Shown piece by piece: positions 15,140-48,233 of a DNA stretch of 64,000 nt. Made by a program: the position numbers and the translations under genes. Source of the stretch: Candidatus Gottesmanbacteria bacterium (GTDB lineage Bacteria; Patescibacteriota; Microgenomatia; UBA10105); the NCBI GenBank assembly GCA_023245415.1, contig JAHFKJ010000001.1, positions 32,902 to 96,901 on the forward strand. Direction: 5' to 3'. Each line of letters starts with the position of its first letter. The first letter of the stretch is position 1. The notes under the pieces were generated by a model. The model did not search any database and was not told the DNA's origin. It was given only the letters and a program-made list of their open reading frames with translations.

Positions 15140-16946
15140 ATTCTAATACGTCTATATACGGACCAAATCTATTTACATGAAGCAGTTCGTAAACATTTGC
15201 AGATCCATGAATTAAATTTGTTAAAGGTTCTAACGAAGTCGTATGACGAGGAGTGATATGTTTAATTAATCGCCAGTGTGGAGGAGCATGGGTTACTAAT
15301 CGCTTTTCGGAAGTCCAAAATAATTGAATGATATATTTAATTTTCTGATTTTGAGCATACGCAAAAGTTTTATCAGGATCATCTCCTTGCTTGGTTATTT
15401 CGAGATAAACAACATTTCTTACAGTTTCCGGGTAGTCTTTCGGGGTTAAGACTTTAGCAAGTTGACCCCAAGCACTAGGTTTAAACACCTGCATAACTTT
15501 CATGGCTTCTCTATCGGGGACAAATGGAGAAAAACGAATAGATGTTAATGCAATCTGTAAGTTTGGATCAATATGTCGATTCAGCCAAGTCTGCATTTCA
15601 ATAAATGTAGGCGTATTGTTGTAACGTGATAACCATAAAAGAGATGGAAATATAAGTAATAATATGATTAAGCCAGTAGAGATAGTTAAAACATATTTAT
15701 TCTTAACGCTAACAAGAATATGATTCAAAACAAATGCTGCCGGAATTGATAAGAGGGGAATTATCGGAAGTAAATATCTGAGTGACTGATAAAATGTAAT
15801 CGCCATAATTAGAAAATAAATAGTTGAATAACTCATTATTGGTAAGAGTAATTTTGGCCAATGTTTTACCATGAAAATAGAAATTAAAAGTAATATAAAC
15901 AACATTGGTTCTGTAAGAATAAATTCTTTTGTATAAAACCCTAACCCGCTCAAAAGACCTTGGTTAATATTAGCGGTAAGTATATTTTGAAACTCTGATA
16001 GTTGATATGTATAAGTCATCAGCATTTTATATAAGCTTAACGAGACTAAAGGTATCCCGATAAGTACAGTGAGAGTAAGTAATGATTGGTTGTAAGGTAA
16101 AATTTTTCTTTTAGATTGCAAAAAAAGCAGCAAGAGTAGTAATAATCCATAAATGGCAGAAAAATGAAATCCAATAGCCAATACGAACGAAAGGGCAGAA
16201 AAAAATATAAATTTAATTTGTTGTTGAACTTTATCCAAACTTTTATAGCACCAGTAGATTCCCAACAAGTAAAAAAACTGTGAAGGCATCCACGGTTTCC
16301 CAATATGAGACAGTTGCACATGAGTTGTTGAAAATGCCACTATGAACGTAGCCCAAAAAGCAACGTTGGGTCGTTTGGGAAGTATTAATCTTGTTAACTT
16401 ATAGACAATTAGGAGTGAAGCTGTCCCAAATAAAGCTGAAATAAGTCTTGGAATAAATAATAAGTAGCCTTCGTGAGTTAATATAAAAAGTTCAAATTGA
16501 GAAATGTTGGATACGTGGTGAGTTAACCACAGGAACAGATAAGTAGCACCGAAGAATGGAATTAAAACATAAGAACCTAGTGGAGGATATTGAGAAGAAG
16601 TTATAAGTGTTTTTTGTGATAGCATTTCAAATGCCGCAAGGTAATTAGGAACTTCATCTGGAACGGTATAAAGTGCAGGACTACCAAAAGTTGGATTTAT
16701 AATTCTAATTGTAAACGCTAAAATAATAATAAATATTAGATTAATCATTGATGAATTCATAAATGTAAGGGGTAGTATAATTACACTAATCGATGGGAGC
16801 AAATAATGTGTTAAAAATAAAAAGCCAAATACCATACGGTAAACAGCAAATATTCTCTGATGATGTTGAAGCAGTTGTAAGAGTTTTAAATTCAGATTAT
16901 CTGACACAAGGACCTTGTATTGAAAAATTTGAATATGCAATCGCAC
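15123..16946 (-). CDS. Large polytopic membrane protein with a C-terminal soluble domain, GT-C-like. GTG start at 16946; an alternative ATG start sits near 16760.
   Basis: 607 aa, more than 10 predicted TM segments. First loop carries the 'YTVPDEVPNYLAAF' acidic motif resembling ArnT/PMT family. The long form overlaps the divergent aminotransferase start by about 150 nt, so the downstream start (MNSSMINL) is more plausible. Confidence 0.4.
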   Translation of the reverse strand: MRLHIQIFQYKVLVSDNLNLKLLQLLQHHQRIFAVYRMVFGFLFLTHYLLPSISVIILPLTFMNSSMINLIFIIILAFTIRIINPTFGSPALYTVPDEVPNYLAAFEMLSQKTLITSSQYPPLGSYVLIPFFGATYLFLWLTHHVSNISQFELFILTHEGYLLFIPRLISALFGTASLLIVYKLTRLILPKRPNVAFWATFIVAFSTTHVQLSHIGKPWMPSQFFYLLGIYWCYKSLDKVQQQIKFIFFSALSFVLAIGFHFSAIYGLLLLLLLFLQSKRKILPYNQSLLTLTVLIGIPLVSLSLYKMLMTYTYQLSEFQNILTANINQGLLSGLGFYTKEFILTEPMLFILLLISIFMVKHWPKLLLPIMSYSTIYFLIMAITFYQSLRYLLPIIPLLSIPAAFVLNHILVSVKNKYVLTISTGLIILLLIFPSLLWLSRYNNTPTFIEMQTWLNRHIDPNLQIALTSIRFSPFVPDREAMKVMQVFKPSAWGQLAKVLTPKDYPETVRNVVYLEITKQGDDPDKTFAYAQNQKIKYIIQLFWTSEKRLVTHAPPHWRLIKHITPRHTTSLEPLTNLIHGSANVYELLHVNRFGPYIDVLEFNEFL

Positions 16947-17986
16947 AATATTGTCAAGTCAAATACGCTGTAGCTTTTTCATCCGGTACCGCAGCTCTTC
17001 ATGGTGCATGTTTTGCTGCAGGAGTCGGAAATGGAGATGAAGTCATTACATCACCGTTAACTTTTGCAGCTTCAGCAAACTGTGTATTGTATTGCGGAGG
17101 AAAACCCGTATTTGCTGATATAAAATCCGATATTCCCTTGATAGATCCAAAACAAATATTTTTAAAAATTACCGATCGGACAAAAGCTGTTATACCTGTT
17201 GACTATTCTGGTATGCCAGCAGATTACCATGAAATAAATATTCTTGTTAGAAAACATAAATTAATAGTTATTGCGGATGCGGCGCATTCTTTCGGGGCAA
17301 CTTATAAGGATAAGAAAGTTGGCAGCTTAGCTGATATGACAGTGTTTTCTTTTCATCCAGTGAAACTTATTACTACAGGTGAAGGTGGAATGGTTGTAAC
17401 TAATAATCAAAAATTTTATGAGCGATTATTACTTTTTCGAAATCATGGGATTACAAAAGACCCGCGATTATTAAAAAGAAAAAGTGAGGGCCCATGGTAT
17501 TATGAAATGCAAGAGTTGGGTTTTAATTACCGACTAACCGATATACAGGCTGCGTTGGGTTTGATGCAACTTAAAAAAATTAATCGGTTTTTGGTTCGAA
17601 GGACTGAGATTGCTTCCGTATACACAAATTTTTTAAAAAATGAGATAAATATTCGTTCGCTGAGTGTTTCAAATGATCGCACATCCGCCTGGCATTTATA
17701 TCCGATTCAGCTGCAAGGAAAACTTCGAAATCTTAGAAAAGATATTGTAAATTTACTCCATAAGAGGGGGGTGATGGTACAAATTCACTACATTCCTGTA
17801 CATTTACATCCTTTTTATCACGAGCAGTTTGGGTTTAAAAAGGGAGATTTTCCCAACGCAGAAGCATTTTACGAAGGCGAAATTTCATTACCAATTTTTC
17901 CTAAACTAAAAACTAGAGAGCAATTTTGGGTTTTAAAAACACTCAAAAACGTCCTTACGTCTTTTTCTTCACTTAGTAAACATTGA
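16793..17986 (+). CDS. pseC: DegT/DnrJ/EryC1-family PLP-dependent sugar aminotransferase, PseC-like
   Basis: N-terminal 'IPYGKQQIFSDDVEAVVRVLNSDYLTQGP' is characteristic of PseC-type 4-aminotransferases. 'DAAHSFGATYKDKKVGSLADMTVFSFHPVKLITTGEGG' retains the PLP-binding lysine. Confidence 0.65.
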   Translation: MGANNVLKIKSQIPYGKQQIFSDDVEAVVRVLNSDYLTQGPCIEKFEYAIAQYCQVKYAVAFSSGTAALHGACFAAGVGNGDEVITSPLTFAASANCVLYCGGKPVFADIKSDIPLIDPKQIFLKITDRTKAVIPVDYSGMPADYHEINILVRKHKLIVIADAAHSFGATYKDKKVGSLADMTVFSFHPVKLITTGEGGMVVTNNQKFYERLLLFRNHGITKDPRLLKRKSEGPWYYEMQELGFNYRLTDIQAALGLMQLKKINRFLVRRTEIASVYTNFLKNEINIRSLSVSNDRTSAWHLYPIQLQGKLRNLRKDIVNLLHKRGVMVQIHYIPVHLHPFYHEQFGFKKGDFPNAEAFYEGEISLPIFPKLKTREQFWVLKTLKNVLTSFSSLSKH

Positions 17987-18012
17987 TTTTATCACTGTGG
18001 GAATATCAAATT

Positions 18013-18798
18013 TTAGCGGACATCAATTCCTTTTAGGCGCATATATTCTTTTGCATGTCGGGTGGATTGTTCAGTAAAGTGAAAAATGTTTGCTGCGGCT
18101 ACAGCCGATGCATGACCGTTCACAATTCCGTCAAATAAATGTTGCCATTCACCTACACCGCCGGCGGCAATTACTGGTATATCAACATTATCAGCAATAT
18201 TTCTAATTAAATTCAAATCATATCCGGAAAGTGTGCCGTCTTTATCCATTGATTGTAAAAGTATTTCTCCGGCTCCTCTGTTGGCCACTTCTTTTGCCCA
18301 ATAAATCGGATCCAAACCTGTTGCAACTTGGCCGTAACTTGTGATGACTTCATATTTATCATTTATTTTCTTAACATCAATTGACACAACGATACACTGT
18401 CTACCGAATATTTTAGCAGCCTCAGTTATAAATTCAGGTTTTTTAACAGCTTGTGAGTTGATCGAAATCTTATCGGCGCCGGCATGTAGATATTTTCTAA
18501 TATCAGCAATCGTATTGATACCACCACCAACAGTCAGCGGTACGAAACATCTAGTAGAAATATATTCTGTGTATTCAATCAATTTGGAGAAATTTTCTAA
18601 ATTAATATCCTGTCGACCTCGTATATACTTCATTTCTGGGGTGATGTCTAAAAAAACTATTTCGTCTACTTCCCATGCATTGAAGTATTCAATTGCAATT
18701 TTTGGGTTTCCTACAGGACGAAATGTTTTAAATTCAATACTCTTAACAAGCATACCTTCGCGCAACAACAGAATTGGGATCAGACGCTTTTTTAACAT
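18013..18798 (-). CDS. HisF-like cyclase/ammonia-channel subunit (WbuZ/AglY-like) of an acetamidino-sugar amidotransferase complex
   Basis: 'DEIVFLDI', 'AGADKISINS', 'DGTLSGYDLNLI' and 'IPVIAAGGVG' (TIM-barrel HisF signature). Lies in a sugar-modification context rather than a histidine operon. Confidence 0.7.
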   Translation of the reverse strand: MLKKRLIPILLLREGMLVKSIEFKTFRPVGNPKIAIEYFNAWEVDEIVFLDITPEMKYIRGRQDINLENFSKLIEYTEYISTRCFVPLTVGGGINTIADIRKYLHAGADKISINSQAVKKPEFITEAAKIFGRQCIVVSIDVKKINDKYEVITSYGQVATGLDPIYWAKEVANRGAGEILLQSMDKDGTLSGYDLNLIRNIADNVDIPVIAAGGVGEWQHLFDGIVNGHASAVAAANIFHFTEQSTRHAKEYMRLKGIDVR

Positions 18799-18799
18799 A

Positions 18800-20029
18800 T
18801 TACATGAATTGATATTCTTTTGGTTCTGGAAGAGGAGGGTTAGGCTGTAAAATATAGTAAGAATCAGGATTTAAGGGCAATCTAGAGACCTCGACGCCTG
18901 GATCATCAAGATGATTAGTAATAGAGTCAATCAGCTTCCAGTCACCAGATGATATTTTTTTCCATGCCTGTCGATCGCGCATTTTCTCAACTGCTTCAAA
19001 CAAATCTTTCTTGACTAGACCTGTCCATTTCAAGTATATATCCAGGTCATATGGTTCCTGGTGGTCATATTTTTCAACCATTGCAATTCCTTGCTCCCGG
19101 CTCATTCTACCGAAGCGAATATCAATACTGGCGTGATCCGTTGCTCGACCGTATCCAAATTTAAGATAGCGGAGATAGTCGTTTAGTCCGTTTGAAACAT
19201 GATCTTCGACATTTTCATATAAATTAAACGACCGATGCGGCGGTCCAGATTCAAAGCCGTATTTTTTTATCATCAGTTCCGTTTGTATTTTATGATTCCA
19301 GGGTATGAAGTTCCCTAAATAAATACCGCGAACATCGACACGATCAATTTCTTGATCGGTAGGATACATGGCCCAAAATAAATCCTTAGGTGTAATATCA
19401 TTTTCTTCTGAGAGCATATCCTGCCAATCATAACCGCGAAGTCCGTGTTCTACACGAAACTTTTTTGTCATTTCCACCATATCAAAATGTGAAAACATAC
19501 CTCCCAAGTCCATAAAACCTTGCTCACCCCAAATTATAAGCGGTATATTGTATTTTACGGCAATTTGCACAGGATAAGTGTAGATTCCACAGTGACTGTG
19601 CCAAAACATATCCCCCATTCTTCTTATAGTATAGATGGATAATTTTTTGATAGCAGCTGGATTGGGAGTGAAACGGAGATGGTCTAACTCAAATCGTTTG
19701 ACTAAGTTAGTCAAGTTTCTTAAACCGCGTTTGGTATTCATCTCGTGGTTAAATGTCACGAGCAACGGATTCATCCCGTAAATAACTTTAATGAGATAGG
19801 TTTGATAATGGCTATCTTTGCCGCCGGAAACAGGAATAATACAATCATAGTTTTTACCATTAGTGCTGCGATACTTGTCTAGAATAGTTCGAAGTTTATT
19901 CTCGCGCTCCTTCCAGTCGATGCTTTCTTTTTCTTCATGTACCCGACATGCACTACATACACCTTGTTCATCAAAGGTGAGCGGAATGGCATAATTTTCC
20001 GGACAGACGCAGCGTTGACAGTAGCGCAT
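18800..20029 (-). CDS. N-acetyl sugar amidotransferase (WbuX/WbpG/PseA/AglZ-like PP-loop ATP pyrophosphatase)
   Basis: N-terminal Cys-rich ribbon 'CQRCVCPENY...CSACRVHEE' and PP-loop 'IIPVSGGKDSHYQ'. Adjacent to the HisH-like and HisF-like genes. Confidence 0.7.
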   Translation of the reverse strand: MRYCQRCVCPENYAIPLTFDEQGVCSACRVHEEKESIDWKERENKLRTILDKYRSTNGKNYDCIIPVSGGKDSHYQTYLIKVIYGMNPLLVTFNHEMNTKRGLRNLTNLVKRFELDHLRFTPNPAAIKKLSIYTIRRMGDMFWHSHCGIYTYPVQIAVKYNIPLIIWGEQGFMDLGGMFSHFDMVEMTKKFRVEHGLRGYDWQDMLSEENDITPKDLFWAMYPTDQEIDRVDVRGIYLGNFIPWNHKIQTELMIKKYGFESGPPHRSFNLYENVEDHVSNGLNDYLRYLKFGYGRATDHASIDIRFGRMSREQGIAMVEKYDHQEPYDLDIYLKWTGLVKKDLFEAVEKMRDRQAWKKISSGDWKLIDSITNHLDDPGVEVSRLPLNPDSYYILQPNPPLPEPKEYQFM

Positions 20030-20034
20030 AAAAT

Positions 20035-20643
20035 TTAAGACTCCATCATAACAAAGTTTTTCAAGAGTTGCAATCCGTTTTTCTGGCTTTTTTCCGGATG
20101 AAATTGGACTCCGTAAATATTATGAAATTTGACACTGGATACAAACGTTTCTCCATAATCACAAGTGGAAGTGACAATTGGTTTCTCTTTTGGATCTATC
20201 ACATAGCTGTGGGCAAAATAAAAGGTTGGATTCTCTGGCAAATCTTTAAACAGACTAGTTTTATCCTTTACCAAAACATTATTCCAACCAACGTGTGGTA
20301 ACTTCTCTCGAGTGTTAATTTTTCTGACAATTCCCTGAATCCAATTTAATCCTTCATATTTACCATCTTCAAAACCGGTTTGGGCCAATAGCTGCAGTCC
20401 TAAACATATACCTAAATATAGTTTACCCTTGATTAACACTTCATCACGCAAGCAGTGAATAAGCTGACTCTTACGTATGGCTTTCATTCCGTCACAAAAC
20501 GCACCCTGGCCGGGAAAAATTAACTTATCAGCTTGTTGAATATACTTGGGTTCGGTTGTAATTTGATGCGGAGCTTTAAGATAGGCTAAAGCGTTTGCTA
20601 CTGATTTGACATTACCGATTCCCGAGTCAATGATTGCGATCAT
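20035..20643 (-). CDS. HisH-like class I glutamine amidotransferase subunit (WbuY/AglX-like)
   Basis: 'GICLGLQLL' catalytic Cys region and 'VQFHPEKS' His/Glu region. Confidence 0.7.
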   Translation of the reverse strand: MIAIIDSGIGNVKSVANALAYLKAPHQITTEPKYIQQADKLIFPGQGAFCDGMKAIRKSQLIHCLRDEVLIKGKLYLGICLGLQLLAQTGFEDGKYEGLNWIQGIVRKINTREKLPHVGWNNVLVKDKTSLFKDLPENPTFYFAHSYVIDPKEKPIVTSTCDYGETFVSSVKFHNIYGVQFHPEKSQKNGLQLLKNFVMMES

Positions 20644-21154
20644 ATTTAATTTTTTTTAACGTGCGTACCAGTACCTCGGTGTATAACGGATACAACTGTG
20701 CATACACTTCGGCCTCGGTTTTAATTTCTATGTTTTCAATCATTTTATATTCTTCGAAAAGTATTTCACCAGCATCGATTTTCTCCACCATCCAGTGTGA
20801 AGCGACAGAGGCTTTAGGATTGCCGTCGGCGATAAGTCTTTTTATCGGATTGACGCCTTTATACCTGTAAAGACAAGGGTGAAGATTTATACATGGTAAA
20901 GTTTCTACGAACTGTCTAGATAAAATTTTACGTCCGTGACAACAAATGAAAAGATCTATGTTAGCTGCGATTTCTTTGGGAAACGCGGGGTCATCTAAGA
21001 TTGAGGGTGGAAATGTGCGTAATTGAAAGCTGTTTGCGATTTGCTTAATGCCCTCGTCAACATATATTACATTACGTATGTCATGTTTTGATGCTAAAAG
21101 TGTTAATAATGTAATAACACCGGCAGTTTGGCCGCCATAGAATGCAATCCTCAC
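20627..21154 (-). CDS. Formyltransferase-fold protein (Formyl_trans_N-like), candidate sugar N-formyltransferase
   Basis: 'INLHPCLYRYKGVNP' matches the HxSLLPxxxG catalytic motif of formyltransferases, with a downstream Asp in 'VEKIDAGEIL'. Only about 175 aa, so N-domain only. Confidence 0.5.
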   Translation of the reverse strand: MRIAFYGGQTAGVITLLTLLASKHDIRNVIYVDEGIKQIANSFQLRTFPPSILDDPAFPKEIAANIDLFICCHGRKILSRQFVETLPCINLHPCLYRYKGVNPIKRLIADGNPKASVASHWMVEKIDAGEILFEEYKMIENIEIKTEAEVYAQLYPLYTEVLVRTLKKIKYDRNH

Positions 21155-21174
21155 GAAGGTATTGTATCAAAAAA

Positions 21175-22227
21175 TCACGCAAGTATTTCTCGAGTAAGTG
21201 GCGTTCCTCGTTGGATATCAAGTGCAGCTTTTCTTCCTAAAACTTCATCCAAATATTTTGGGTGTAATCCATATCCGGGGCGGATACAACGGACATTTTC
21301 TTGAGTAAATCTTTCACCTTTCCTGACGTTTTTGACAATAAAAAGTGAGCGACGGAAGACAATATTTTCTGATTCACGTTTGTCTGGTTTATATGTCGGC
21401 TTGCCAATAGCTTTTTCGACTTGGCGAATTTCTTGAACCAGCCGTTTGAACTCTAAAGGCTCTAATGAAAACGTGCAATCTGAACCACCTTCTTTACGCG
21501 AAAGTGTCAAATGTTTCTCGATGATTTTCGCTCCTAGTGCCACCGCAGTTATGGATGCAGTTAGACCTAAACTATGATCGGACAATCCCGGAATTACTTT
21601 AAATTTTTTTTGCAGATCCGGGATTGTCGCAATATTCATTTGTTCCAAAGTTGCTGGATAGGAACTGATGCAGTGGAGTACGGCGACCCCTGCTGCACCG
21701 TTTCTTTTAAGGGTGTTTATAGCCGTGATTATTTCTTCTGGTGAGGCTAACCCACGTGAGATTAATACCGGTTTTTTTGTTTGGCCAATCCGCTTGAGTA
21801 AGTCTACATCAATATTTTCAAATGACGCAATCTTGTATAGAGGCGGAGTTAATTCTTCTAAAAAATCAACCGCGGTGATATCAAAAGGCGTGGAAAAAAT
21901 GATTAAGCCTTTTTTTCGAGCATAAGCAAAAAGTTGCGGATGCCATTCCCAAGGAGTGTATACAGATTTATATAAGTCATAAAGTGTTTGGCCGGCCCAG
22001 GCATTGGCTTTGCCAATACGAAACCATTTTTTATCCGAATCAATTGTCAAGGTATCGGGTGTATAAGTTTGTAATTTGACTGCATCGACGCCTGCTTCTT
22101 TTGCAGCATCAATCAATTGATAAGCCCGATTAAGATTTTGTTTATGATTTCCCGATAGCTCAGCAACAATAAAACACGGCTGTCCAGCGCCAACTTTCCG
22201 TTTGTCTATTGAAAAAATATTCTGCAT
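21175..22227 (-). CDS. pseI: N-acetylneuraminate-synthase-family nonulosonic acid synthase, PseI-like
   Basis: 'CFIVAELSGNHKQNLNRAYQLIDAAKEAGVDAVKLQTY' TIM-barrel signature and a C-terminal SAF domain 'RRSLFIVKNVRKGERFTQENVRCIRPG'. Confidence 0.7.
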   Translation of the reverse strand: MQNIFSIDKRKVGAGQPCFIVAELSGNHKQNLNRAYQLIDAAKEAGVDAVKLQTYTPDTLTIDSDKKWFRIGKANAWAGQTLYDLYKSVYTPWEWHPQLFAYARKKGLIIFSTPFDITAVDFLEELTPPLYKIASFENIDVDLLKRIGQTKKPVLISRGLASPEEIITAINTLKRNGAAGVAVLHCISSYPATLEQMNIATIPDLQKKFKVIPGLSDHSLGLTASITAVALGAKIIEKHLTLSRKEGGSDCTFSLEPLEFKRLVQEIRQVEKAIGKPTYKPDKRESENIVFRRSLFIVKNVRKGERFTQENVRCIRPGYGLHPKYLDEVLGRKAALDIQRGTPLTREILA

Positions 22228-22241
22228 AAGAATTCATTATA

Positions 22242-22970
22242 TCATTGACCAAAATGCTTTCGTGGTATATGATTATTAATTGCTGGGAGTTCCGGGTGAG
22301 AGTCCAACAAAGAAATGATTTGCTGACAATTTAATGAATCTGCATGGTAATTCTCGATGAGAATTTTTATGAGTTGGTAATCTTCCTGAGTGTCAACTGA
22401 AAGTTGATAGGCAGATTTATCAATCCTTTGTACGAATTGACTTATTTTAAATTCCTGCCGGTGAGTTCGATAAATATATGGTGTTACATGTTCACGTTCC
22501 ACAGTATCGTGGGCGTTTTTATAAGCCGTTTCAAGCGCCTTAAACGTAAAAATTTCGAAATCAAACCCGCGGGGAAAAGTGCGTTTGATGGTATTTGATA
22601 GATAGTCAGAATTCTCTTCAAGATATTGTTCTAGGCCTTGGGAGATTAAATCTCCATCAATTAGAGGACAATCTGAAGTGATTCGAATAACTGTGTCAGC
22701 TTTAAATTCCTTTGCAGTTTCGTAATAGCGACTTAAAACATCATCTAATTTTCCTCGAAAGACTGTATACTGTTGTTTTTGACAATAGATATATAATTTA
22801 TCATCCGATGCGTTTGTGGATGTAGCAATCACAACTTGATCAATGTGTTTTGTACATTTAATTCGATTAACCACATACCACAATAACGCTTCACCATTTA
22901 TGGGTAATAAGACTTTACCTGGAAGTCTTGTTGAACTCATTCTGGCTTGAATGATTAAAACTATTTGCAT
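22242..22970 (-). CDS. pseF: Acylneuraminate cytidylyltransferase family (PseF/NeuA-like CMP-nonulosonate synthetase)
   Basis: 'IVLIIQARMSSTRLPGKVLLPINGEALL' and 'VVIATSTNASDD'. Confidence 0.7.
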   Translation of the reverse strand: MQIVLIIQARMSSTRLPGKVLLPINGEALLWYVVNRIKCTKHIDQVVIATSTNASDDKLYIYCQKQQYTVFRGKLDDVLSRYYETAKEFKADTVIRITSDCPLIDGDLISQGLEQYLEENSDYLSNTIKRTFPRGFDFEIFTFKALETAYKNAHDTVEREHVTPYIYRTHRQEFKISQFVQRIDKSAYQLSVDTQEDYQLIKILIENYHADSLNCQQIISLLDSHPELPAINNHIPRKHFGQ

Positions 22971-22976
22971 AAGATA

Positions 22977-24014
22977 CTATATCTTATAAAGTGCATCAAA
23001 AAACATTTTTTGTATCGGATGCGGACTCCGTCTATAGATTAAGCGCCAATTTTTCGGAAACTGATAATCAAATTCCTTAATATAAGAATTAACTGAAGTT
23101 CTGGATTTACGCCATTGTTTTAGATAAAAAAAACCATGAGTAAGTCGATCGATTAAACTCACAAAATTTTTAATTTGTTCTCTCGTCATCTCATGAAAGG
23201 AACTGATGTTTATCATTAAATTATAATATTTTTTAGGTAAGTATTCTAATTGATGCGGGAGTATGAAGCGTATTCGTGCAGAGATAAATTCTTTCTTAAT
23301 TTGGTTAAAAGACTTAAACGAATGGAAGAAAAATATCCTATCGTTTGGAAAAACTGCCGATATATATTTTTGAGATACATGAAGTGCTGGTGGTATATCG
23401 ATAATTGTATAAGTGCATTGTGGTAGTACCTTCAGGAATACAGTTGCTAATCTACCGTATCCGGCCCCGATTTCTGCAATATTCATTTTACTCTGGCCGG
23501 CTATTTTATTGGTTATACTATAAAATTCATGAATTGAATTACATAAATCCTGAGATAATAATTGATTTTTGTATTCAACTATAAATGGATTGCCGATTTT
23601 TGGTTCGGAGGCAATGTTGAAAATTTCTTTAATGTCTGTTGCTTTCAAATAGTCGGCATAAGACGCTACAAATATTCTGTATATAAAAGCTGAGATAGCA
23701 TTGAAATGTTTAATATTTCCCGCTTTCGTATTATTGTAATTTCTAAATCTACTCAAATAAAGTGGTTTCAGATTTCCCTGAAAAAGTTGAGATAATACTA
23801 TATTTAGTTGCTGTCTGATTATCCCTAAAGTTCCCCAGTTAAAATATTTCATATTAACAGTGCGTTTGAAATTCTTAAACCCATAATGTATCAATTGGTC
23901 AGTATGTTTACTATTTAATTCTTCCCAAAATTGAGAAGGAAAATAAATTGGCTTACTAGAACGAAGCTCTTTATGCATGCTGGATTGTTGCAGTTTATCC
24001 GAGTTGCTAGTCAT
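22977..24014 (-). CDS. SAM-dependent methyltransferase, putative sugar O-methyltransferase
   Basis: 'EIGAGYGRLATVFLKVLPQCTYTIIDIPP' SAM motif I. N-terminal 'FWEELN...GFKNFKRTVNMKYFNW' block. Confidence 0.45.
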   Translation of the reverse strand: MTSNSDKLQQSSMHKELRSSKPIYFPSQFWEELNSKHTDQLIHYGFKNFKRTVNMKYFNWGTLGIIRQQLNIVLSQLFQGNLKPLYLSRFRNYNNTKAGNIKHFNAISAFIYRIFVASYADYLKATDIKEIFNIASEPKIGNPFIVEYKNQLLSQDLCNSIHEFYSITNKIAGQSKMNIAEIGAGYGRLATVFLKVLPQCTYTIIDIPPALHVSQKYISAVFPNDRIFFFHSFKSFNQIKKEFISARIRFILPHQLEYLPKKYYNLMINISSFHEMTREQIKNFVSLIDRLTHGFFYLKQWRKSRTSVNSYIKEFDYQFPKNWRLIYRRSPHPIQKMFFDALYKI

Positions 24015-24023
24015 ATATGCGGA

Positions 24024-25643
24024 TTATTTTTTTTGCGCGACGATTAGTTGTATTGGAGATCCTTTGCATAAATAAAATAGATATGAAATAGGTACGAGGA
24101 TAATTCCTAACATCCCTATAATAATAGGCAATATTAACTTATATTTATGAGTGTATTTTAGAGCAAAAATATTTAGTTTTGGTGAAATGCGATATAATAT
24201 GCTTTGTGTCAATCCGATGGGGATATATTCAATTGCATAAATAGTTCTTTTTTTAATGATTCTGAATCCTACATCCTCAATTATTTGTGTTAGTCCATTT
24301 GGGGTAAAGTGAAAGAGATGTCTAGGCGGGTCTAGATGAAACCAGCTCGAACCAAATAAAATTCTTTCCCATGAGTTGTAGTTCGGGCATTCTATTATCA
24401 GAATTCCACCTTTTTTTAAGTATATAGATACCTTTTTAAGTGTTTGTAAAGGATTTTTTAGATGTTCAAAACTTTCCCAAAAAGTAACTAGATTGTAAGA
24501 CATAGGCTTTTCATTCATTTTTTCTACTCCTACGAGCTTAACATTTGAACTTTTAGAATCAGAGAATGGGGTTTCTATACATTGATAGAAGTACTTATTA
24601 GAATCTAATTGACCTCCTATTTTTCCGTCACCGCAGCCAATGTCTAAAATTTTTCCCGCAGGTAAAAAGCTTTTAATTATTTTTGGGCGTCGAACTTGCA
24701 AAAGACTGTATATAAAGGTTTTTAAAAAAATAAAGTATATTTTAGGGTAAAAAGTATGCAAACCATTAGGCTTTGGGTGTGTAAATCCAATATTGCAGGG
24801 AGTACAATAATATATTGAAAATATATTATTGCTGACAGCATCGCGAACATTATACTCTAAACGAGTTATGGATCGTCTACACAAAGGGCATTGTTGTACG
24901 GAAACTTTACTAAAAGGTCCGGAAGGCTTTTTGACAAATTTTGATATTACATATTGAGTGAGCGTCTTGAAAGTCCCTAATGCATAAATCGTACTATTTT
25001 TTAAGTTCGCCGTATGCATTTTCGGATGATAATCACAGGATACTTGTATTTCAGCTATTTTAAATTTATAAAATACTGCCTGTACGATAATTTCGAAGCT
25101 AAAAAGATAATCATCGGAATTTTGGTAAAAAGGAATTGATGTAAGTAATTTTCGTGTGTATAGTCTAAATCCTGAGTGGAATTCTGAAAGCTCTAACCCG
25201 AGTAGTAAATTATCTACATACGAAAGGCCACGATTTGCAATAAACTTATGGATAGGCATTTTTCGATCAAGAGCATCTTTCGGGTGAATAAACCTTGATC
25301 CGAGAGCCAAATCATAACCCCGGGAGATTTTTTTGAGGAACAAAGGTAAATTTTGCGGATCGTATTGATTGTCCGGATGGAATTCAATTATTATATCAGC
25401 ACTAGCTTCTAGAGCACGTGAAAGGCTAACTTTGAGGTTTCCACCGTATCCCAAGTTTAGAGAATTACGAAATACTGTGATTGGAAGTTCTTTCGCAACT
25501 TTATAAGTATTGTCCGTAGACGCATCATCTACGAGTATAATTTGGTCTATAAGTTTTTTAGGAAGTCTATTGTAAGAATCAACTAAAGTTTTAGCTGCAT
25601 TGTGTGCAGGCATAACTACAATGATTTTAGGTTTTTTGGTCAT
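24024..25643 (-). CDS. Fusion protein: N-terminal GT2 (DPM1-like), central Cys4 ribbon, C-terminal class I SAM methyltransferase, and a C-terminal TM anchor
   Basis: N-terminal 'KIIVVMPAHNAAKTLVDSYNRLPKKLIDQIILVDDASTDNT'. Central 'CPLCRRS...CTPCNIG'. C-terminal 'ILDIGCGDGKIGGQL' and the hydrophobic tail 'LILPIIIGMLGIILVPISYLFYLC'. Confidence 0.6.
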   Translation of the reverse strand: MTKKPKIIVVMPAHNAAKTLVDSYNRLPKKLIDQIILVDDASTDNTYKVAKELPITVFRNSLNLGYGGNLKVSLSRALEASADIIIEFHPDNQYDPQNLPLFLKKISRGYDLALGSRFIHPKDALDRKMPIHKFIANRGLSYVDNLLLGLELSEFHSGFRLYTRKLLTSIPFYQNSDDYLFSFEIIVQAVFYKFKIAEIQVSCDYHPKMHTANLKNSTIYALGTFKTLTQYVISKFVKKPSGPFSKVSVQQCPLCRRSITRLEYNVRDAVSNNIFSIYYCTPCNIGFTHPKPNGLHTFYPKIYFIFLKTFIYSLLQVRRPKIIKSFLPAGKILDIGCGDGKIGGQLDSNKYFYQCIETPFSDSKSSNVKLVGVEKMNEKPMSYNLVTFWESFEHLKNPLQTLKKVSIYLKKGGILIIECPNYNSWERILFGSSWFHLDPPRHLFHFTPNGLTQIIEDVGFRIIKKRTIYAIEYIPIGLTQSILYRISPKLNIFALKYTHKYKLILPIIIGMLGIILVPISYLFYLCKGSPIQLIVAQKK

Positions 25644-26884
25644 GGAACAATGCTTACGGAAGGGACAGGTATAATAAATTTACCTCCTTGAGTTATATAA
25701 TTTTTTTCTTTATCCATTATCTCTTTCGCAAAGTTCCAGGCTAAAAGTAAAATATAGTCAGGTTTTCGCTTGGATATTTCGACTTCAGGATAAATTCTGA
25801 TATGAGATCCGGGGGTATATAATCCTTGTTTATATGGAGTTGAATCAACTGCAAAATCAATAAGCGTATTATTAATACTGCAGTAATTAAGTAGAATATT
25901 GCCTTTTGCTGCAGCACCGTAGGCAGCGATAGTTTTGCCGTTATTTTTCAGTTTTTGTAATGTCATCTTCAGTTCTCTGCGTAATCTTTTTATACGTTTT
26001 GCGAATAAATTTAATACTGACAAATTGCCCAGGCCAAATTTCTCTTCGGCGGCAATCATGTCCTTGATTTTGTCGTTTATTGTATTATTATTCTGGTTTT
26101 CCTTTTTACCGATATAGACCCGTAATGATCCGCCATCTATAGACGTCCGTTCGATGTCTATTAAATGAAGATTTACTTGTGAAAGCAGGTTTAATAAAGG
26201 TTTTACTGAAAAGTAGGAAAGATGCTCATGATAAATCGTGTCGAATTGATTTTTTTCAATTAAATCCATTAGATACGGAAATTCACATATAAAAGCTCCG
26301 TTATCAGAAAGAAGTATTTTGATTGAATTAAATAAGTCATGTAAATCCTGTATATGGGCAACCACATTTGTTGCGGTGATAATTTTAGCGGTACCTTTTG
26401 CGGAGCGTATTTTTTTCGCCAGTTTTTGAGAAATATAATCATTGATTGTTTCTATACCTTTTAACTGGGCTATTTTTGCTAAATTGGTCGCCGGGTCAAT
26501 TCCTAAAGTTTTAATACCATAACCTCTAAAATAGGAGAGCAAACTGCCATCGTTGCTTCCTATATCAATCACTAAAGATTCAGTTGAAATGTGAAAACGA
26601 TTACGGATAGTAAAAGCTATATCTGCAAAGTTGCTCATTCTGGTTTTCGAACTTGAAGGTATATACACATAGTTTTTAAACATTGCTTCAGGGTTTACTG
26701 TCTCTGCCAGTTGGACAAGACCGCAGTCCATACAATAGGCGGTGTTTAATGGGTATTTATTTTCTTTCTTTTTTAGATCTTCCAATTTCAAGAATCCATT
26801 AGGGAGAGGAATCGTTCCTAGATTTAAAAATGTAAACAGTCTTTTTCCTTTACAGATTCTACAGTGAACTAATTTTTTAGTCAT
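25640..26884 (-). CDS. Zn-ribbon plus SAM methyltransferase of the NDP-sugar C-methyltransferase-like family; paralog of 11770..13011
   Basis: 'CRICKGKRL...CMDCGLVQL', 'LVIDIGSNDGSLL', 'FDTIYHEHLSYFS', 'GGSLRVY' and 'KTIAAYGAAAKGNILLNY'. Colinear with 11770..13011 over the full length. Confidence 0.6.
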   Translation of the reverse strand: MTKKLVHCRICKGKRLFTFLNLGTIPLPNGFLKLEDLKKKENKYPLNTAYCMDCGLVQLAETVNPEAMFKNYVYIPSSSKTRMSNFADIAFTIRNRFHISTESLVIDIGSNDGSLLSYFRGYGIKTLGIDPATNLAKIAQLKGIETINDYISQKLAKKIRSAKGTAKIITATNVVAHIQDLHDLFNSIKILLSDNGAFICEFPYLMDLIEKNQFDTIYHEHLSYFSVKPLLNLLSQVNLHLIDIERTSIDGGSLRVYIGKKENQNNNTINDKIKDMIAAEEKFGLGNLSVLNLFAKRIKRLRRELKMTLQKLKNNGKTIAAYGAAAKGNILLNYCSINNTLIDFAVDSTPYKQGLYTPGSHIRIYPEVEISKRKPDYILLLAWNFAKEIMDKEKNYITQGGKFIIPVPSVSIVP

Positions 26885-26916
26885 ACAAATAAGAAAACAA
26901 TTTTATATTGAGTAGT

Positions 26917-28476
26917 TTACTTCGACAAGCTGTATAAATATAGACTTTTAGTTCTTGCGCCATCTGATAAGTTGCTTTCGGAAAATTCTTTAATTAAGGA
27001 ATAGTTTTTTTTAATTTCATTTAATATCTCAAGTCGCTGTAATTCGGTTCTCCCGAAATAATGTGTATAAGAATCATTATAGATAATCATTGCTATTCTT
27101 TTATTGTGTATCATATCTTTAAATTCTTCTAAAGATGTCAAATGGTACTTTTGAGCAGATTGCGTGTCTAATATTGATAATGATCCGGCACCTTCATTCA
27201 TACGAATTGGTACGCTTCTATTTATTTCAGCGACAACTGGTAGGTAAAAAGTGATGATTAAGTCATCTATGTTTGTATTATTTTCTACAAATGCTGATAT
27301 CTCGCGAACGTAGTCATGAGGGTTTTTTTGTATAGTACTTAAGGACGTTTTAAGAAATTTGTAATGGGGAAAAGCAACAAAATTGGAAAATAGTATAAAA
27401 ATTAGTAGTGCGTAAAGAAATTTCCTGGTACTAACTCCAGAAATTTTTTGGCTGGTTATTATAACATAGTTGCTTGCCATTATTGATAATAAAGGTACAA
27501 CTGGATATAAATATGAGGAGTCCATGGGGTGATGAATTAAAGCGGTTAAAAGATATATAAAAATTATCATCCGGCAAAACAGAGAAAAGAGATAGTTTTT
27601 TTTAGAAGTTACTGTTTTTGTGAACAAAATTTCACTCAATATTATTATTAGAAATATTCCATAGTCTCTGATCGTTAATATAATAAATTCAATTATATTA
27701 GTTAAATTATACCTAGGGATATCTGAAACATATATAAGAATTTTTTTTGAGAAAAAAGGCCAAATAAGAGCATAAAGAGTTAGCTGAACACTTTTAAATA
27801 AAAAGGGCAGATATACACAAGTCGCTGTAAGAAGTCCAATTCCAGTCACCTTAATCAAATAATTCCTATTCTGCCTATGTCTGTATAAAGTATAAAACCA
27901 GCATAAAAGTAAGATTGGAATAGTTTGCGATCGTACAGCGGTATTAATTACAGCGAACATAATTGCAGCTGAGTTCCAATGAAGGATATGCCTTTTGGAT
28001 TTCAAAGACTTTGAGATGCAAAAAATGGTCAATATCAAAAATAATGACATTATTTGACTTGAATACGGGATATTTGAGTTGTAAAGATAGGTAATACTGC
28101 CAAACGTCAAAAATAAACCAGTTAATAAAACTTGTTTTCCGGATCCTAATGTTCTGCTGATTATTAAACACAGAATCAAGACTATCAAAGCTATTAGAAA
28201 TCCGATTACACGTTGAGAAAATATTGTTGGAAGTGTAAAAAGTGATGAGAATCCAATCAGATAATCAGTGAGAAGACTATTCCATCCGTTATAATCTATA
28301 AAAGGAATATGACCTGAATAAGCCAATTTTGCATTATAAAGTGCGATACCTTCATCGGTTGTTATATATCCGTATACTATAAAAATTAACCGTAAAATTA
28401 TATTTATACTCAATATTACAGAAAATAAAAGCATCCCACGGTTGCGAAGTGACTTAGTAAAATTAATAAATTTCAT
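26917..28476 (-). CDS. Large polytopic membrane protein, GT-C-like (ArnT/PMT-like acidic loop motif)
   Basis: 519 aa, many TM segments. First loop 'GYITTDEGIALYNAKLAYSG'. C-terminal soluble domain. Confidence 0.4.
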   Translation of the reverse strand: MKFINFTKSLRNRGMLLFSVILSINIILRLIFIVYGYITTDEGIALYNAKLAYSGHIPFIDYNGWNSLLTDYLIGFSSLFTLPTIFSQRVIGFLIALIVLILCLIISRTLGSGKQVLLTGLFLTFGSITYLYNSNIPYSSQIMSLFLILTIFCISKSLKSKRHILHWNSAAIMFAVINTAVRSQTIPILLLCWFYTLYRHRQNRNYLIKVTGIGLLTATCVYLPFLFKSVQLTLYALIWPFFSKKILIYVSDIPRYNLTNIIEFIILTIRDYGIFLIIILSEILFTKTVTSKKNYLFSLFCRMIIFIYLLTALIHHPMDSSYLYPVVPLLSIMASNYVIITSQKISGVSTRKFLYALLIFILFSNFVAFPHYKFLKTSLSTIQKNPHDYVREISAFVENNTNIDDLIITFYLPVVAEINRSVPIRMNEGAGSLSILDTQSAQKYHLTSLEEFKDMIHNKRIAMIIYNDSYTHYFGRTELQRLEILNEIKKNYSLIKEFSESNLSDGARTKSLYLYSLSK

Positions 28477-28540
28477 AAAATACTGAGCATATTCTACTTA
28501 AAATATTGTGGATAGGCCAGTATTATGATATCTTTGTCGC

Positions 28541-29527
28541 ATGTTTGAATGGTCAAAACAAGTAATACTTCTTACTGGTGGGACAGGTTCTTTTGGTCAA
28601 GCTTTTACTAAGTATTTATTAAAAAAACAACCACCTAAATCACTACGGATTTATAGTCGTGATGAGTATAAACAATATTTGATGCAGCAAAAATTTAACC
28701 ATCGTGCATTACGCTATTTTTTAGGAGATGTACGTGATATCGATCGGTTACGCAGAGCAATGTCTGGGGTATCTTTAGTAATTCACGCAGCGGCTATGAA
28801 ACAAATTGTAGCTTCCGAATATAATCCCACTGAAGCAGTAAAAACTAATATATTCGGGACTATGAACGTTTTAAACGTGGCTCTTGATTATGATATTGAA
28901 AGAGTATTTGGACTAATCACCGACAAAGCAGTCAGTCCGATAAATCTATACGGTGCTACAAAGTTGTGTATGGAGAAACTGCTTATTCAAGGTAATGCTT
29001 ATCGAGGAAAATGTAAAACAAAATTAAGCTGCATACGGTATGGGAATGTTGCAGGCAGCCGTGGAAGTATTATTCCTCTATTTTCGAAACAGCAAAGAAA
29101 AGGATTTATAACGCTTACCCATCCCGAGATGACAAGATTCTGGTTGACATTGGAAGACGCTGTCAGTTACGTAATTAGATCGATTGAGATTATGAAGGGC
29201 GGAGAGGTGTTTATACCCAAGATGCCCAGTTTTAAAATAATTGATCTCATTAAAGCAATAAATCCAAAACTAAGGCATAAATTGATAGGGGTAAGACCAG
29301 GAGAAAAAATACACGAAGACTTAATTAATATTCATGAGTCTAAAAACATTAGAGAACTTCCCAAACATTTTGTACTTTTGCCAGAGTTTGATTTTTGGGA
29401 TGATCCCGGAAAAGAATATAAAGTTGGGAAAAATGTATCCGCGACATTTTCATATAGTAGTAATAATAATTCTCATTTTTTGTCACATACGCAACTTGCT
29501 CAGTTGTTAAAAACAATTGAGTTATGA
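28541..29527 (+). CDS. pseB: UDP-N-acetylglucosamine 4,6-dehydratase (inverting), PseB/FlaA1-like short CapD-family SDR
   Basis: 'ILLTGGTGSFGQAF', 'GDVRDIDRL', 'HAAAMKQIVASEYNPTEAVKTNIFGTMNV', 'ITDKAVSPINLYGATKLCMEKL' and 'IRYGNVAGSRGSIIPLF'. Confidence 0.75.
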   Translation: MFEWSKQVILLTGGTGSFGQAFTKYLLKKQPPKSLRIYSRDEYKQYLMQQKFNHRALRYFLGDVRDIDRLRRAMSGVSLVIHAAAMKQIVASEYNPTEAVKTNIFGTMNVLNVALDYDIERVFGLITDKAVSPINLYGATKLCMEKLLIQGNAYRGKCKTKLSCIRYGNVAGSRGSIIPLFSKQQRKGFITLTHPEMTRFWLTLEDAVSYVIRSIEIMKGGEVFIPKMPSFKIIDLIKAINPKLRHKLIGVRPGEKIHEDLINIHESKNIRELPKHFVLLPEFDFWDDPGKEYKVGKNVSATFSYSSNNNSHFLSHTQLAQLLKTIEL

Positions 29528-31425: not shown

Positions 31426-31460
31426 ACTTGAAAAACTTATACTGATCAGGTTGTGTAAAC

Positions 31461-32561
31461 TCAATGTACAAGTTGCTGAAAAATAGAAATATACTGGTTT
31501 GCGATGATTTTATAGTTATAAAATGTTCGAATTAAAGTTGATGCATTTTTACCGATATGTTCTTTCAAATCATCTTGCTGATTAAGAGCGTTGATGTGTG
31601 ATACTATTTGTTTCAAGTTACCTGGATCGACCAGAATACAGTTGATTAAATGTTTAAATCTAAACTCTTCGACACCCGGAGTTTTAGTAAGAATTACAGC
31701 TTTGCTACAACTCATACAGCGCATAGCACTCGCCTGACCGCTAAAATGCTGATTTTGATTATTTAAGATTAGAACGATTTTGGAATTTCTAATTTTTTCA
31801 ACTAAATTGGCATTCTCAAAGTATTGTAGCCGAACGTTTTTTGGCATAGTTAGTTTAACCAAAGCAGGTTGAGTCGCAAATAAAAATTTTTCATTCGGAA
31901 AACTTAAAGCTACTTGGCGATATAGCTTCCAGTCGCGGGCCGGGTCAATTCCGATTCCAAGAATATATTTATCAGCGGAAGTTATAGCCGGTTTAAAAAA
32001 GTCTATATCAATTCCGCTATACGGCGCGAATCTAAAAAGAGTTATATCTAAATTAAAATTACTGGCCAGTAATTCGCATTCATGCCAACTGCTACCGGAA
32101 ATAAATAAGTCAACTTCAAGAAGCCAAGATTTTAAAACCCTTTTGTTAAATGAATTCTGTTTATTTATGAACTGATCGTACAATCCACAGATATTCATGA
32201 CTATTCTTGGTTTATTAATTAATCTCAACTTTTTTAATAATCCTAATGAAAGCCCAGTTTTAGGGGTGGTAGCAAATACAAACTGACTTCGATTAATTCT
32301 TTTTAGCAGTGGCAATATAGTTATTAAGGGAAAATTTATTCCGATTATTAAATTAAGAGTGTGATCTATAACTAAATGAAATAGTTTTACGAAAAAATTA
32401 TCTGAAGCAACAGTCGCAAAATCAAGGTTAAATTTTTTTTTAAATTCATGATAGAAATAGAAGTAGTCTTTTGGAATTTGACCGTTTTTAGCTTTAGACA
32501 GATCATTTTTGATAGAATTACGAAATAAATAAAGTAATTTTGTTTTATTTCTTTTCATCAT
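31461..32561 (-). CDS. Divergent GT-B-fold glycosyltransferase (GT4-like C-terminal domain)
   Basis: C-terminal 'FSGQASAMRCMSCSKAVILTKTPGVEEFRFKHLINCILVDPGNLKQIV' follows the GT1/GT4 donor-binding pattern. Lacks the canonical E-x7-E motif. Confidence 0.3.
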   Translation of the reverse strand: MMKRNKTKLLYLFRNSIKNDLSKAKNGQIPKDYFYFYHEFKKKFNLDFATVASDNFFVKLFHLVIDHTLNLIIGINFPLITILPLLKRINRSQFVFATTPKTGLSLGLLKKLRLINKPRIVMNICGLYDQFINKQNSFNKRVLKSWLLEVDLFISGSSWHECELLASNFNLDITLFRFAPYSGIDIDFFKPAITSADKYILGIGIDPARDWKLYRQVALSFPNEKFLFATQPALVKLTMPKNVRLQYFENANLVEKIRNSKIVLILNNQNQHFSGQASAMRCMSCSKAVILTKTPGVEEFRFKHLINCILVDPGNLKQIVSHINALNQQDDLKEHIGKNASTLIRTFYNYKIIANQYISIFQQLVH

Positions 32562-32600
32562 TCAGCATTTTATTGATTAAGTTATTTTTGCAAAAAAACT

Positions 32601-36415: not shown

Positions 36416-36430
36416 AATAAAATCAATAGA

Positions 36431-46076: not shown

Positions 46077-46079
46077 CAA

Positions 46080-48232: not shown

Positions 48233-48233
48233 T

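Follow-up and report, generated by a model that had tools for sequence, protein, structure and literature searches.

We have analyzed a 64-kb stretch of DNA from a Candidatus Gottesmanbacteria bacterium (contig JAHFKJ010000001.1, positions 32,902 to 96,901; from here on the window) and found in it a compact gene cluster for the synthesis of pseudaminic acid (Pse). With slightly more confidence than doubt, we read this cluster as a working CMP-Pse module in which a small formyltransferase takes the place of PseH, UDP is released by something other than PseG, and a protein of 633 amino acids (aa) whose gene is coupled to that of PseB acts as the transferase. The window, with a G+C content of about 33%, is a continuous surface-glycan island. 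All the Pse genes lie inside 14.6 kb, in three abutting units (Table 1). The PseC unit is convergent with a 10-gene operon on the minus strand (18013-28476), and this operon is divergent from the pair formed by PseB and the 633-aa gene, with 64 bp between them. A related locus, L002 (the loci used for comparison are denoted by L numbers), has preserved this layout, with Pse proteins 42-72% identical to those of the window. An earlier reading of the DNA, made from the letters alone (the sequence-only reading), had described the pathway as scattered over three transcription units on both strands. The three units stand, but scattered is an overstatement for genes that abut within 14.6 kb and keep their arrangement in L002. 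A scan of positions 16000-33000 for promoters and terminators gave no evidence of operons (69 promoter-like sites vs 73 in shuffled sequence, 14 terminator-like sites vs 9.3), so the units were drawn from strand and gene overlaps only.

The nature of the pathway was established from its core enzymes. We scanned every open reading frame (ORF) of the window of about 90-100 aa or more with the NCBIfam models, and those left unassigned were then scanned against Pfam. PseB, PseC and PseI pass the cut-offs of their Pse equivalog models (Table 1) and fail with the models of the legionaminic acid (Leg) and neuraminic acid (Neu) pathways. PseB scores 57.8 bits on LegB and 234 on FnlA, PseC 241.8 bits on LegC (cut-off 420) and PseI 303.4 bits on NeuB, under the cut-off of 399.65. 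Among the DegT-type aminotransferases of the window, PseC alone passes TIGR03588, the others scoring 157-322 bits. The best relatives of known structure are also Pse enzymes, namely FlaA1/PseB of H. pylori for PseB (2gn4, 322 bits; PglF 122) and a Pse synthase for PseI (8h2c, 313 bits; NeuB about 150). The family identity of these three enzymes, and of the WbuX protein described below, is established at the level of model scores, and as judged by them the pathway is of the Pse type, not of the Leg or Neu type. The check named in the sequence-only reading, whether these enzymes would group with Leg or Neu, has thus been decided for Pse. The cytidylyltransferase gene beside PseI is a different case. 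It belongs to the CTP_transf_3 superfamily and its best match in the PDB is 6oew, described as "Cytidylyltransferase" (160 bits), but it reaches only 26.3 bits on the PseF equivalog TIGR03584 (cut-off 205.7), so that PseF-like applies to it at the superfamily level only. Its orthologues are present in most of the formyltransferase-type Pse loci described below. Thus, the four genes named in the sequence-only reading (PseB, PseC, PseI and PseF-like) are all present where it had placed them, the last one as a CTP_transf_3 protein and not as a canonical PseF.

The same scores bear on the alternative, also raised in that reading, that the synthase makes legionaminic, acinetaminic or another non-Pse nonulosonate. 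The absence of PseG and of a canonical PseF would fit such a product, as would the LegC-like (372.9 bits) and LegB-like (204.9 bits) genes found elsewhere in the window. However, these two genes score under their cut-offs and lie in other operons, the window has neither an Epimerase_2 protein of the NeuC/LegG type nor a second NeuB, and PseB, PseC and PseI all prefer the Pse models. We consider this alternative largely refuted and highly improbable.

In the NCBIfam scan neither PseH (TIGR03585) nor PseG (TIGR03590) found a match among the ORFs of the window. Directly downstream of PseI, in the minus-strand operon, there is instead a formyltransferase of 175 aa. A total of 70 homologues were found, the few named ones in metagenome-assembled genomes (MAGs) of Patescibacteria and Pacebacteria, and the catalytic triad Asn-His-Asp (N90, H92, D127) is invariant across 28 aligned homologues. 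The best PDB matches to the family profile were Fmt (58 bits) and WbtJ (4nv1, 55.6), with the dTDP-Qui4N formyltransferases (48-52; 6v33 at 51.8), ArnA (about 48) and VioF (46.4) among the further ones. The Pse formyltransferase PseJ (6ci4) ranked about 50th, behind Fmt, WbtJ, ArnA, VioF, PurN and the LgrA F-domain (24.7 bits, E=1.7e-4), a score so low that we place the window protein in another formyltransferase clade, as an analogue and not an orthologue of PseJ. N-formylated nonulosonates are by themselves well established. There is 5-N-formyl-Leg in Halorubrum (PMC6137143), a Leg-type cluster with a deacetylase and a formyltransferase in Kuenenia (bioRxiv 10.64898/2026.04.20.719630), and Pse5Ac7Fo with its formyltransferase PseJ, as summarized in PMC11040635 with reference to Reimer et al. 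2018.

When 185,579 species genomes were scanned, 25 loci with this formyltransferase came to light, in phyla of the Candidate Phyla Radiation (CPR), DPANN archaea, methanogens, Dehalococcoidia and one epsilonproteobacterium. Within the CPR the closest relatives are found in Curtissbacteria (55-57%), and others in Saccharibacteria, Magasanikbacteria, Staskawiczbacteria, Nomurabacteria and Collierbacteria. The gene was adjacent to a PseI homologue or one gene away from it in 22 of 29 loci, and PseB, PseC and the cytidylyltransferase were normally nearby. In L033 the order is PseB-PseC-CTP-PseG-formyltransferase-PseI, without any GNAT, i.e. the canonical set with the formyltransferase in the PseH slot. 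Furthermore, FolD adjoins the formyltransferase in L020, L022 and L024, and a 5-formyl-tetrahydrofolate (THF) cyclo-ligase does so in L020, L021 and L023, in what looks like a private supply of N10-formyl-THF. Both genes code for enzymes that regenerate this cofactor, and such neighbors argue for its use and, as evidence from context, strongly for a real formyl transfer. The loci flanked in this way come from a Staskawiczbacteria MAG and from archaea (Methanosarcinales, DPANN). From these gene contexts and conserved residues, the 175-aa formyltransferase is likely to be the N-acylating enzyme and the functional substitute of PseH.

The sequence-only reading had suggested that a GNAT gene located far from the cluster (Table 1) could fill the PseH role, and the corresponding alternative would be that this GNAT is PseH while the formyltransferase modifies another position or another sugar of the island. 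The window does encode this GNAT, and its other amino-sugar pathways could take a formyl group (an ArnC-like gene is found at 45117-46076). But the GNAT had no match to PseH at E ≤ 1e-4, its only match being a weak one to RimI, and a hidden Markov model (HMM) of the PseH-like GNATs from related Pse loci matched neither this protein nor anything else in the window. It stands last in an operon of overlapping genes, with two aminotransferases and a short-chain dehydrogenase/reductase (SDR) (48234-51483), 25 kb away from PseI, and the syntenic Pse block of L002 has no GNAT at all. We have therefore rejected it as a member of the Pse pathway and regard this alternative as very unlikely. What does weigh against the formyltransferase as a plain replacement comes from the related loci and from the window itself. 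Of the 29 formyltransferase loci, 9 encode a PseH-like GNAT as well, and in one of them, L014 (10001-10981; a Patescibacteria MAG), the two are fused in a protein of 326 aa that scores 36 bits on the PseH model. In a Collierbacteria MAG (L026, 9291-10004) the gene directly preceding the formyltransferase codes for a de-N-acetylase of the PIG-L family. In addition, FolD and the cyclo-ligase are both missing from the window. The co-occurring GNATs, the fusion and the PIG-L gene indicate that the formyltransferase is not always a simple replacement of PseH. In some lineages it may act at another nitrogen, e.g. N5 after deacetylation, and the arrangements in L014 and L026 suggest deacetylation and re-formylation, or double N-acyl variants.

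Regarding PseG, the statement of the sequence-only reading that none is recognizable was borne out over the whole 64 kb. TIGR03590 does detect PseG in the relatives L033 and L034 (201 and 178.5 bits; cut-off 153.55). We also built an HMM from three canonical PseG of related loci, and its best hit with filters off among all the stop-to-stop ORFs of the window of at least 50 aa had an E value of 0.42. Three situations were found among the related loci: a canonical PseG, a protein of the AP_endonuc_2 family, or neither. The canonical PseG adjoins the formyltransferase in L030, L033 and L034. In six loci a TIM-barrel AP_endonuc_2 protein (240-250 aa, with weak matches to EndoIV/CbiR phosphodiesterases) is encoded beside PseI, the formyltransferase or the GNAT, and in L012 it is fused to NeuB (Table 1). 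This gene was never found together with a canonical PseG, of which there are only three loci. This xylose-isomerase-like protein is a candidate for a non-orthologous PseG, or possibly for a keto-sugar isomerase. We found no relevant literature linking nonulosonic acid and xylose-isomerase-like proteins. The window, L002 and about a dozen other loci have neither gene, and a search of the window for an AP_endonuc_2 homologue with phmmer and hmmsearch, filters off, found none.

Hydrolysis might still be canonical if PseG, or a protein of the AP_endonuc_2 type, were encoded elsewhere in the genome. The contig has a length of at least 143 kb, of which the window covers 64 kb, and the flanks, inspected in other assemblies over about 5 kb on the left side (L009) and about 11 kb on the right side (L007), contain only further glycan genes. 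As already mentioned, three formyltransferase-type loci do have a canonical PseG, and the Pse genes of Campylobacter jejuni are split over separate loci. On the other hand, in about 13 related loci the Pse set is otherwise complete and yet has neither PseG nor AP_endonuc_2 nearby, and one of these loci is the syntenic L002, covered with 10 kb to either side. The members of this group that do have a PseG encode it next to the formyltransferase and PseI. We take a hydrolase encoded elsewhere as a tentative but quite conceivable solution. A different proposal, which would bear out the non-canonical hydrolysis suggested as one option in the sequence-only reading, is that the UDP-releasing step is carried out by proteins unrelated to PseG, the best candidate being the 633-aa protein in the window and the AP_endonuc_2 protein in the relatives from the CPR, DPANN and methanogens, with at least two independent displacements of PseG. 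This we hold to be possible but rather doubtful. The window proteins without any family match are all polytopic membrane proteins, which leaves the 633-aa protein and the ordinary GT-B transferases as soluble candidates for the hydrolase. Two neighbors of the Pse genes were considered as substitutes for PseG and rejected. The 366-aa GT-B glycosyltransferase has an orthologue in L011, which has the AP_endonuc_2 candidate, and the same is true of the 519-aa membrane protein, which is also polytopic.

The start of the 633-aa gene overlaps the end of PseB in an ATGA that can be read in the sequence (...GAGTTATGAAAATT...), so that the translational coupling proposed in the sequence-only reading stands. 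Its description of the protein as GT-B and TagF-like also agrees with the structural model. The AlphaFold (AF2) prediction had a predicted local distance difference test (pLDDT) of 90.6 and a predicted template modeling (TM) score (pTM) of 0.91, and its first Foldseek matches were non-hydrolysing UDP-GlcNAc 2-epimerases (E=2e-10, target TM 0.61-0.68), followed by the TagF/TarL CDP-glycerol/ribitol transferases (2e-8). Judging from the order of secondary structure elements in the model, the GT-B core would span residues 220-560, approximately, with an extra domain of about 210 aa before it. The family is rare. An exhaustive search among 1.84 billion representatives, which replaced a word-index search that had given 6 proteins, found 430 matches at E ≤ 1e-3, mostly of similar length; with the threshold set at E ≤ 1e-30 there were 44. 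Residues D359, H383, G425, R492 and K547 are invariant in the family, and H494 and D529 nearly so. A marginal hydrophobic segment at 183-201 was considered as a membrane anchor and discarded because its hydropathy is not conserved across the family.

The C-terminal, nucleotide-binding half of the protein (473-628) matches the BFO_1060 family NF046086 with 40.5 bits (474-626), TIGR04396 with 28.6 and TIGR04326 with 16.5, all of them far under the cut-offs, and it shares with the BFO_1060 type the GT-B fold and a conserved His (R492-x-H494, an HP-type motif). In Tannerella forsythia, whose members of this family have been shown genetically to be Pse/Leg transferases, the O-glycan loses its terminal Pse or Leg derivative when BFO_1060 or Tanf_01245 is deleted (PMC5420450). 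This distant relation to the Tannerella family of Pse/Leg transferases suggests that the 633-aa protein is a transferase as well, probably one that uses CMP-Pse. Among the Pse loci that we examined, 11 contain members of its family, which adjoin PseB in the window, L002 and L011, and come after PseI and the formyltransferase in L006, L013 and L015. Aligned with hhalign, the family is related to a group of shorter proteins of other Pse loci (X341, 340-440 aa) with a probability of 99.3%, the HP motif being invariant in them, and to canonical PseG with a probability of only 20.5%.

Two of these data speak against a transferase: the match to BFO_1060, with 40.5 bits against a cut-off of 200, covers the C-terminal half only, and the best structural neighbors are UDP-GlcNAc 2-epimerases. 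NeuC and LegG, the hydrolysing enzymes that set the nucleotide free in the Neu and Leg pathways, belong to the 2-epimerase family. The 633-aa protein could thus provide the missing PseG function, hydrolysing UDP from the UDP-4-acylamido sugar, with another glycosyltransferase of the island transferring Pse. Its gene is tightly coupled to the biosynthetic PseB, and in L002 and L011 it is also found beside it. The short relatives fill the slot between PseC and the PseF/PseH-like genes in L006 and L015 and give faint matches to PseG, NeuC and Epimerase_2 (E 0.001-0.03). The family never appears beside a canonical PseG (only three such loci), and soluble candidates for this function are few in the window. 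Against a hydrolase, the alignment with PseG is confined to the generic C-terminal domain, and the only lookalike studied genetically, BFO_1060, is a transferase in a host that has its own, biochemically proven PseG (PMC5420450, PMC5378307). With 633 aa, about 210 of them in the extra N-terminal domain, the protein is larger than one would expect of a simple hydrolase (342-388 aa in the canonical PseG of the related loci), and the family co-occurs with the AP_endonuc_2 candidate in L011, L012 and L020. We consider the hydrolase role unlikely.

The rest of the minus-strand operon would account for the decoration of the sugar. The WbuX-family amidotransferase is flanked by HisH-like and HisF-like partners, and the three genes are conserved together in L002, L011, L013-L016, L022 and L026. 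The HisF-like protein scores just under the WbuZ cut-off of 299.7 (AglZ/HisF2 234.6). According to its TIGRFAM description, the WbuX family includes PseA of C. jejuni, the maker of acetamidino Pse. PseA has been described as an amidine synthase (PMC11040635). A NanM-family methyltransferase gene is located on the far side of the cytidylyltransferase from PseI. The formyltransferase next to PseI, together with the amidotransferase trio and this methyltransferase, all of which the sequence-only reading had passed over, explains the absence of PseH and predicts the N-substituents of the product, and suggests a 7-N-formyl, 5-acetimidoyl and possibly O-methylated Pse. In five of the formyltransferase-type Pse loci we found a class-III aminotransferase (about 410-440 aa; Aminotran_3 in L004), accompanied in four of the five by a neighboring GFO_IDH_MocA oxidoreductase. 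This is an additional module for tailoring, as yet uncharacterised. This pair is absent from the Pse block of the window, although a GFO_IDH_MocA gene is found nearby, at 14192-15139.

The pathway that we propose would proceed in seven steps. PseB would convert UDP-GlcNAc to the 4-keto-6-deoxy-L-sugar and PseC would aminate it at C4. The 175-aa folate-type enzyme would then formylate the new 4-amino group, in place of PseH, and UDP would be removed by an enzyme not homologous to PseG. PseI would condense the free sugar with phosphoenolpyruvate to Pse5Ac7Fo. WbuX, HisH and HisF would turn the remaining N-acetyl into acetimidoyl, the NanM-like enzyme may add an O-methyl group, and the CTP_transf_3 enzyme would make the CMP-sugar. 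Finally, the PseB-coupled GT-B protein would bring the sugar to its acceptor. The assignment of the PseB, PseC and PseI steps is at the equivalog level, and formylation is predicted from the conserved catalytic residues and from synteny. We infer the substrate and position of the formylation, the order of the tailoring reactions, the final N-substituents and the role of the transferase. The scheme has a hole at the release of UDP, to which no enzyme is assigned.

Table 1. Genes of the Pse cluster in the window, neighboring genes, and genes of related loci mentioned in the text (positions refer to the window or, after an L number, to that locus).
Feature	Position	Strand	Model match or remark
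PseC, UDP-4-amino-4,6-dideoxy-L-AltNAc aminotransferase	16793..17986	+	TIGR03588 490.6 bits (cut-off 423.5)
HisF-like cyclase subunit (WbuZ-type), putative acetamidino-forming amidotransferase	18013..18798	-	WbuZ TIGR03572 279.7 bits
WbuX/PseA-family N-acetyl sugar amidotransferase	18800..20029	-	TIGR03573 371 bits (cut-off 203.2)
HisH-like glutaminase subunit (WbuY-type)	20035..20643	-	TIGR01855 225.2 bits (cut-off 105.4)
175-aa formyltransferase, candidate for N-formylation of the 4-amino sugar	20627..21154	-	Pfam Formyl_trans_N PF00551 47.1 bits (gathering 26.1)
PseI, pseudaminic acid synthase	21175..22227	-	TIGR03586 472.2 bits (cut-off 340.25)
CTP_transf_3 cytidylyltransferase, presumed CMP-Pse synthetase	22242..22970	-	Pfam PF02348 121 bits
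NanM-family putative sugar O-methyltransferase	22977..24014	-	TIGR04371 135.9 bits (cut-off 44)
GT2 glycosyltransferase fused to a methyltransferase domain, putative Pse role	24024..25643	-	Glycos_transf_2 78 bits, Methyltransf_23 60 bits
Sugar C-methyltransferase, probably of another sugar	25640..26884	-	Methyltransf_13 76, _23 63, _14 192 bits
519-aa polytopic membrane protein, at the start of the minus-strand operon	26917..28476	-	no family match; six transmembrane-like segments
PseB, inverting UDP-GlcNAc 4,6-dehydratase/5-epimerase	28541..29527	+	TIGR03589 442.2 bits (cut-off 407.75)
633-aa GT-B protein, candidate CMP-Pse transferase (alternatively UDP-sugar hydrolase)	29524..31425	+	coupled to PseB
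366-aa GT-B (GT4-like) glycosyltransferase	31461..32561	-	weak Glycos_transf_1 / Glyco_trans_1_2
GNAT once proposed as PseH	47654..48232	-	weak RimI match only (30 bits); no PseH match
AP_endonuc_2 genes	L004:11636-12358, L011:700-1452(-), L020:12295-13035, L025:10504-11253, L032:10522-11271, L035:10363-11259		
AP_endonuc_2 fused to NeuB	L012:5438-7348	-	636 aa
FolD / 5-formyl-THF cyclo-ligase genes	L020:10461-11832, L021:4195-4740, L022:10516-11343, L023:10519-11070, L024:10953-11774		beside the formyltransferase
Class-III aminotransferase module	L004:4075-6224, L014:15-3079, L023:2577-4830, L024:11771-14797, L032:7626-8948		

Around the Pse genes, glycan biosynthesis fills the whole window and its inspected flanks. 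The island therefore extends over at least 80 kb, and the CPR genome to which it belongs is probably small. The island holds about 15 GT2/GT4 genes and 12 polytopic membrane proteins with at least six transmembrane-like segments (GT-C/PMT_2, DUF2142, DUF6798, GT22-like, Agl23-like and Wzx). Two of the neighbors of the Pse genes are conserved beside them in other genomes. Orthologues of the 519-aa membrane protein adjoin Pse genes in L002 (32%) and L011 (43%), and those of the 366-aa GT-B protein are found in L002 (41%), L011 (36%) and L013 (26%). A mechanical ORF of 607 aa with a GTG start (15123-16946, minus strand) overlaps the start of PseC by 154 bp. The identical contig L001 calls this same gene at 545 aa, so the true start is probably near 16760, in which case about 30 bp would separate it from the divergent PseC.

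Other sugars appear to be made in the same island. An RfbH-type CDP-4-keto-6-deoxyglucose 3-dehydrase (491.7 bits, cut-off 423) beside an RmlD-like reductase (35090-37303, minus strand) indicates a separate 3,6-dideoxyhexose branch. Two paralogous sugar C-methyltransferases with the Methyltransf_13/14 architecture (11770-13011 and 25640-26884, both on the minus strand), one of them within the Pse operon, imply C-branched sugars in the glycan. A second amino-sugar block, at 43002-51483, contains the LegB-like SDR already mentioned and three more DegT-type aminotransferases, among them the LegC-like one and an ArnB-like one (321.7 bits). The block also includes the GNAT and the ArnC-like gene, which codes for a polyprenyl-phosphate GT2, as well as a hexapeptide acetyltransferase and an oxidoreductase similar to UDP-GlcNAc 3-dehydrogenase. 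Its products are probably diamino or 3-amino sugars that have no connection with Pse.

Most work on Pse, a sialic-acid-like surface sugar of bacteria, has dealt with pathogens, and its pathway is taken to be a fixed set of six enzymes. We found no relevant literature on pseudaminic acid in Patescibacteria. The small formyltransferase clade tied to PseI is widespread in uncultured CPR, DPANN, methanogens and Dehalococcoidia, and its distribution predicts that N-formylated Pse is common on ultra-small, possibly episymbiotic cells. In these loci the PseG step is often without a PseG homologue, pointing to one or more unrecognised UDP-sugar hydrolases, and the pathway in such loci would be overlooked by annotation pipelines in which PseG is a requirement. 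The rare GT-B family provides in addition a candidate Pse transferase, at a time when few Pse transferases are known.

One of the closest known systems is the CMP-Pse5Ac7Ac pathway of C. jejuni and H. pylori (PseB, PseC, PseH, PseG, PseI, PseF), of which PseB, PseC and PseI in the window are clear orthologues. In C. jejuni the Pse genes are also split over several transcription units, as they are here. The window differs in having no PseH and no PseG and a cytidylyltransferase of another CTP_transf_3 subfamily, and in the formyltransferase, amidotransferase trio and methyltransferase embedded in the cluster. The trio itself resembles wbuXYZ of E. coli O145 as given in the family descriptions TIGR03572/03573, where WbuX has adjacent HisH- and HisF-like partners. 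The likeness to wbuXYZ and to the PseA amidotransferases lies in a WbuX above the family cut-off with both partners adjacent.

For the putative transferase, the Pse5Am7Gra/Leg locus of T. forsythia (PMC5420450, PMC5378307) also has a GT-B/TagB-like protein at the edge of its nonulosonate genes, similar in the C-terminal half and with the conserved His, as well as an acetimidoyl-forming function. The 633-aa protein has nearly double the length of the T. forsythia transferase, an extra N-terminal domain and a match far under the cut-off, and T. forsythia has proven PseG and PseH, unlike the window. The formyltransferase has the Formyl_trans_N fold and the Asn-His-Asp triad in common with the sugar 4-amino N-formyltransferases (WbtJ 4nv1, VioF 4yfv, the dTDP-Qui4N enzymes 6v33/6v2t and the N-domain of ArnA), which are among its best profile matches and act on nucleotide-linked 4-amino-4,6-dideoxy or 4-amino-4-deoxy sugars. 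These have 240-660 aa, while the window protein is without their C-terminal dimerisation or extension region, and their dTDP-gluco substrates contrast with the presumed UDP-linked L-altro sugar of the window. A parallel in function would be the Pse5Ac7Fo pathway of Anoxybacillus kamchatkensis as summarized in PMC11040635 (Reimer et al. 2018, ACS Chem Biol 13:3161; PDB 6ci2/6ci4), where a folate-type formyltransferase, PseJ, replaces the GNAT PseH in a Pse cluster, and the predicted product of the window is likewise a 7-N-formyl Pse. The window enzyme is not orthologous to PseJ and is shorter (175 vs 217 aa). In concept, then, this would be a PseJ-type Pse cluster, set apart by the clade of its formyltransferase, a non-PseF cytidylyltransferase, the absence of PseG and a rare candidate transferase.

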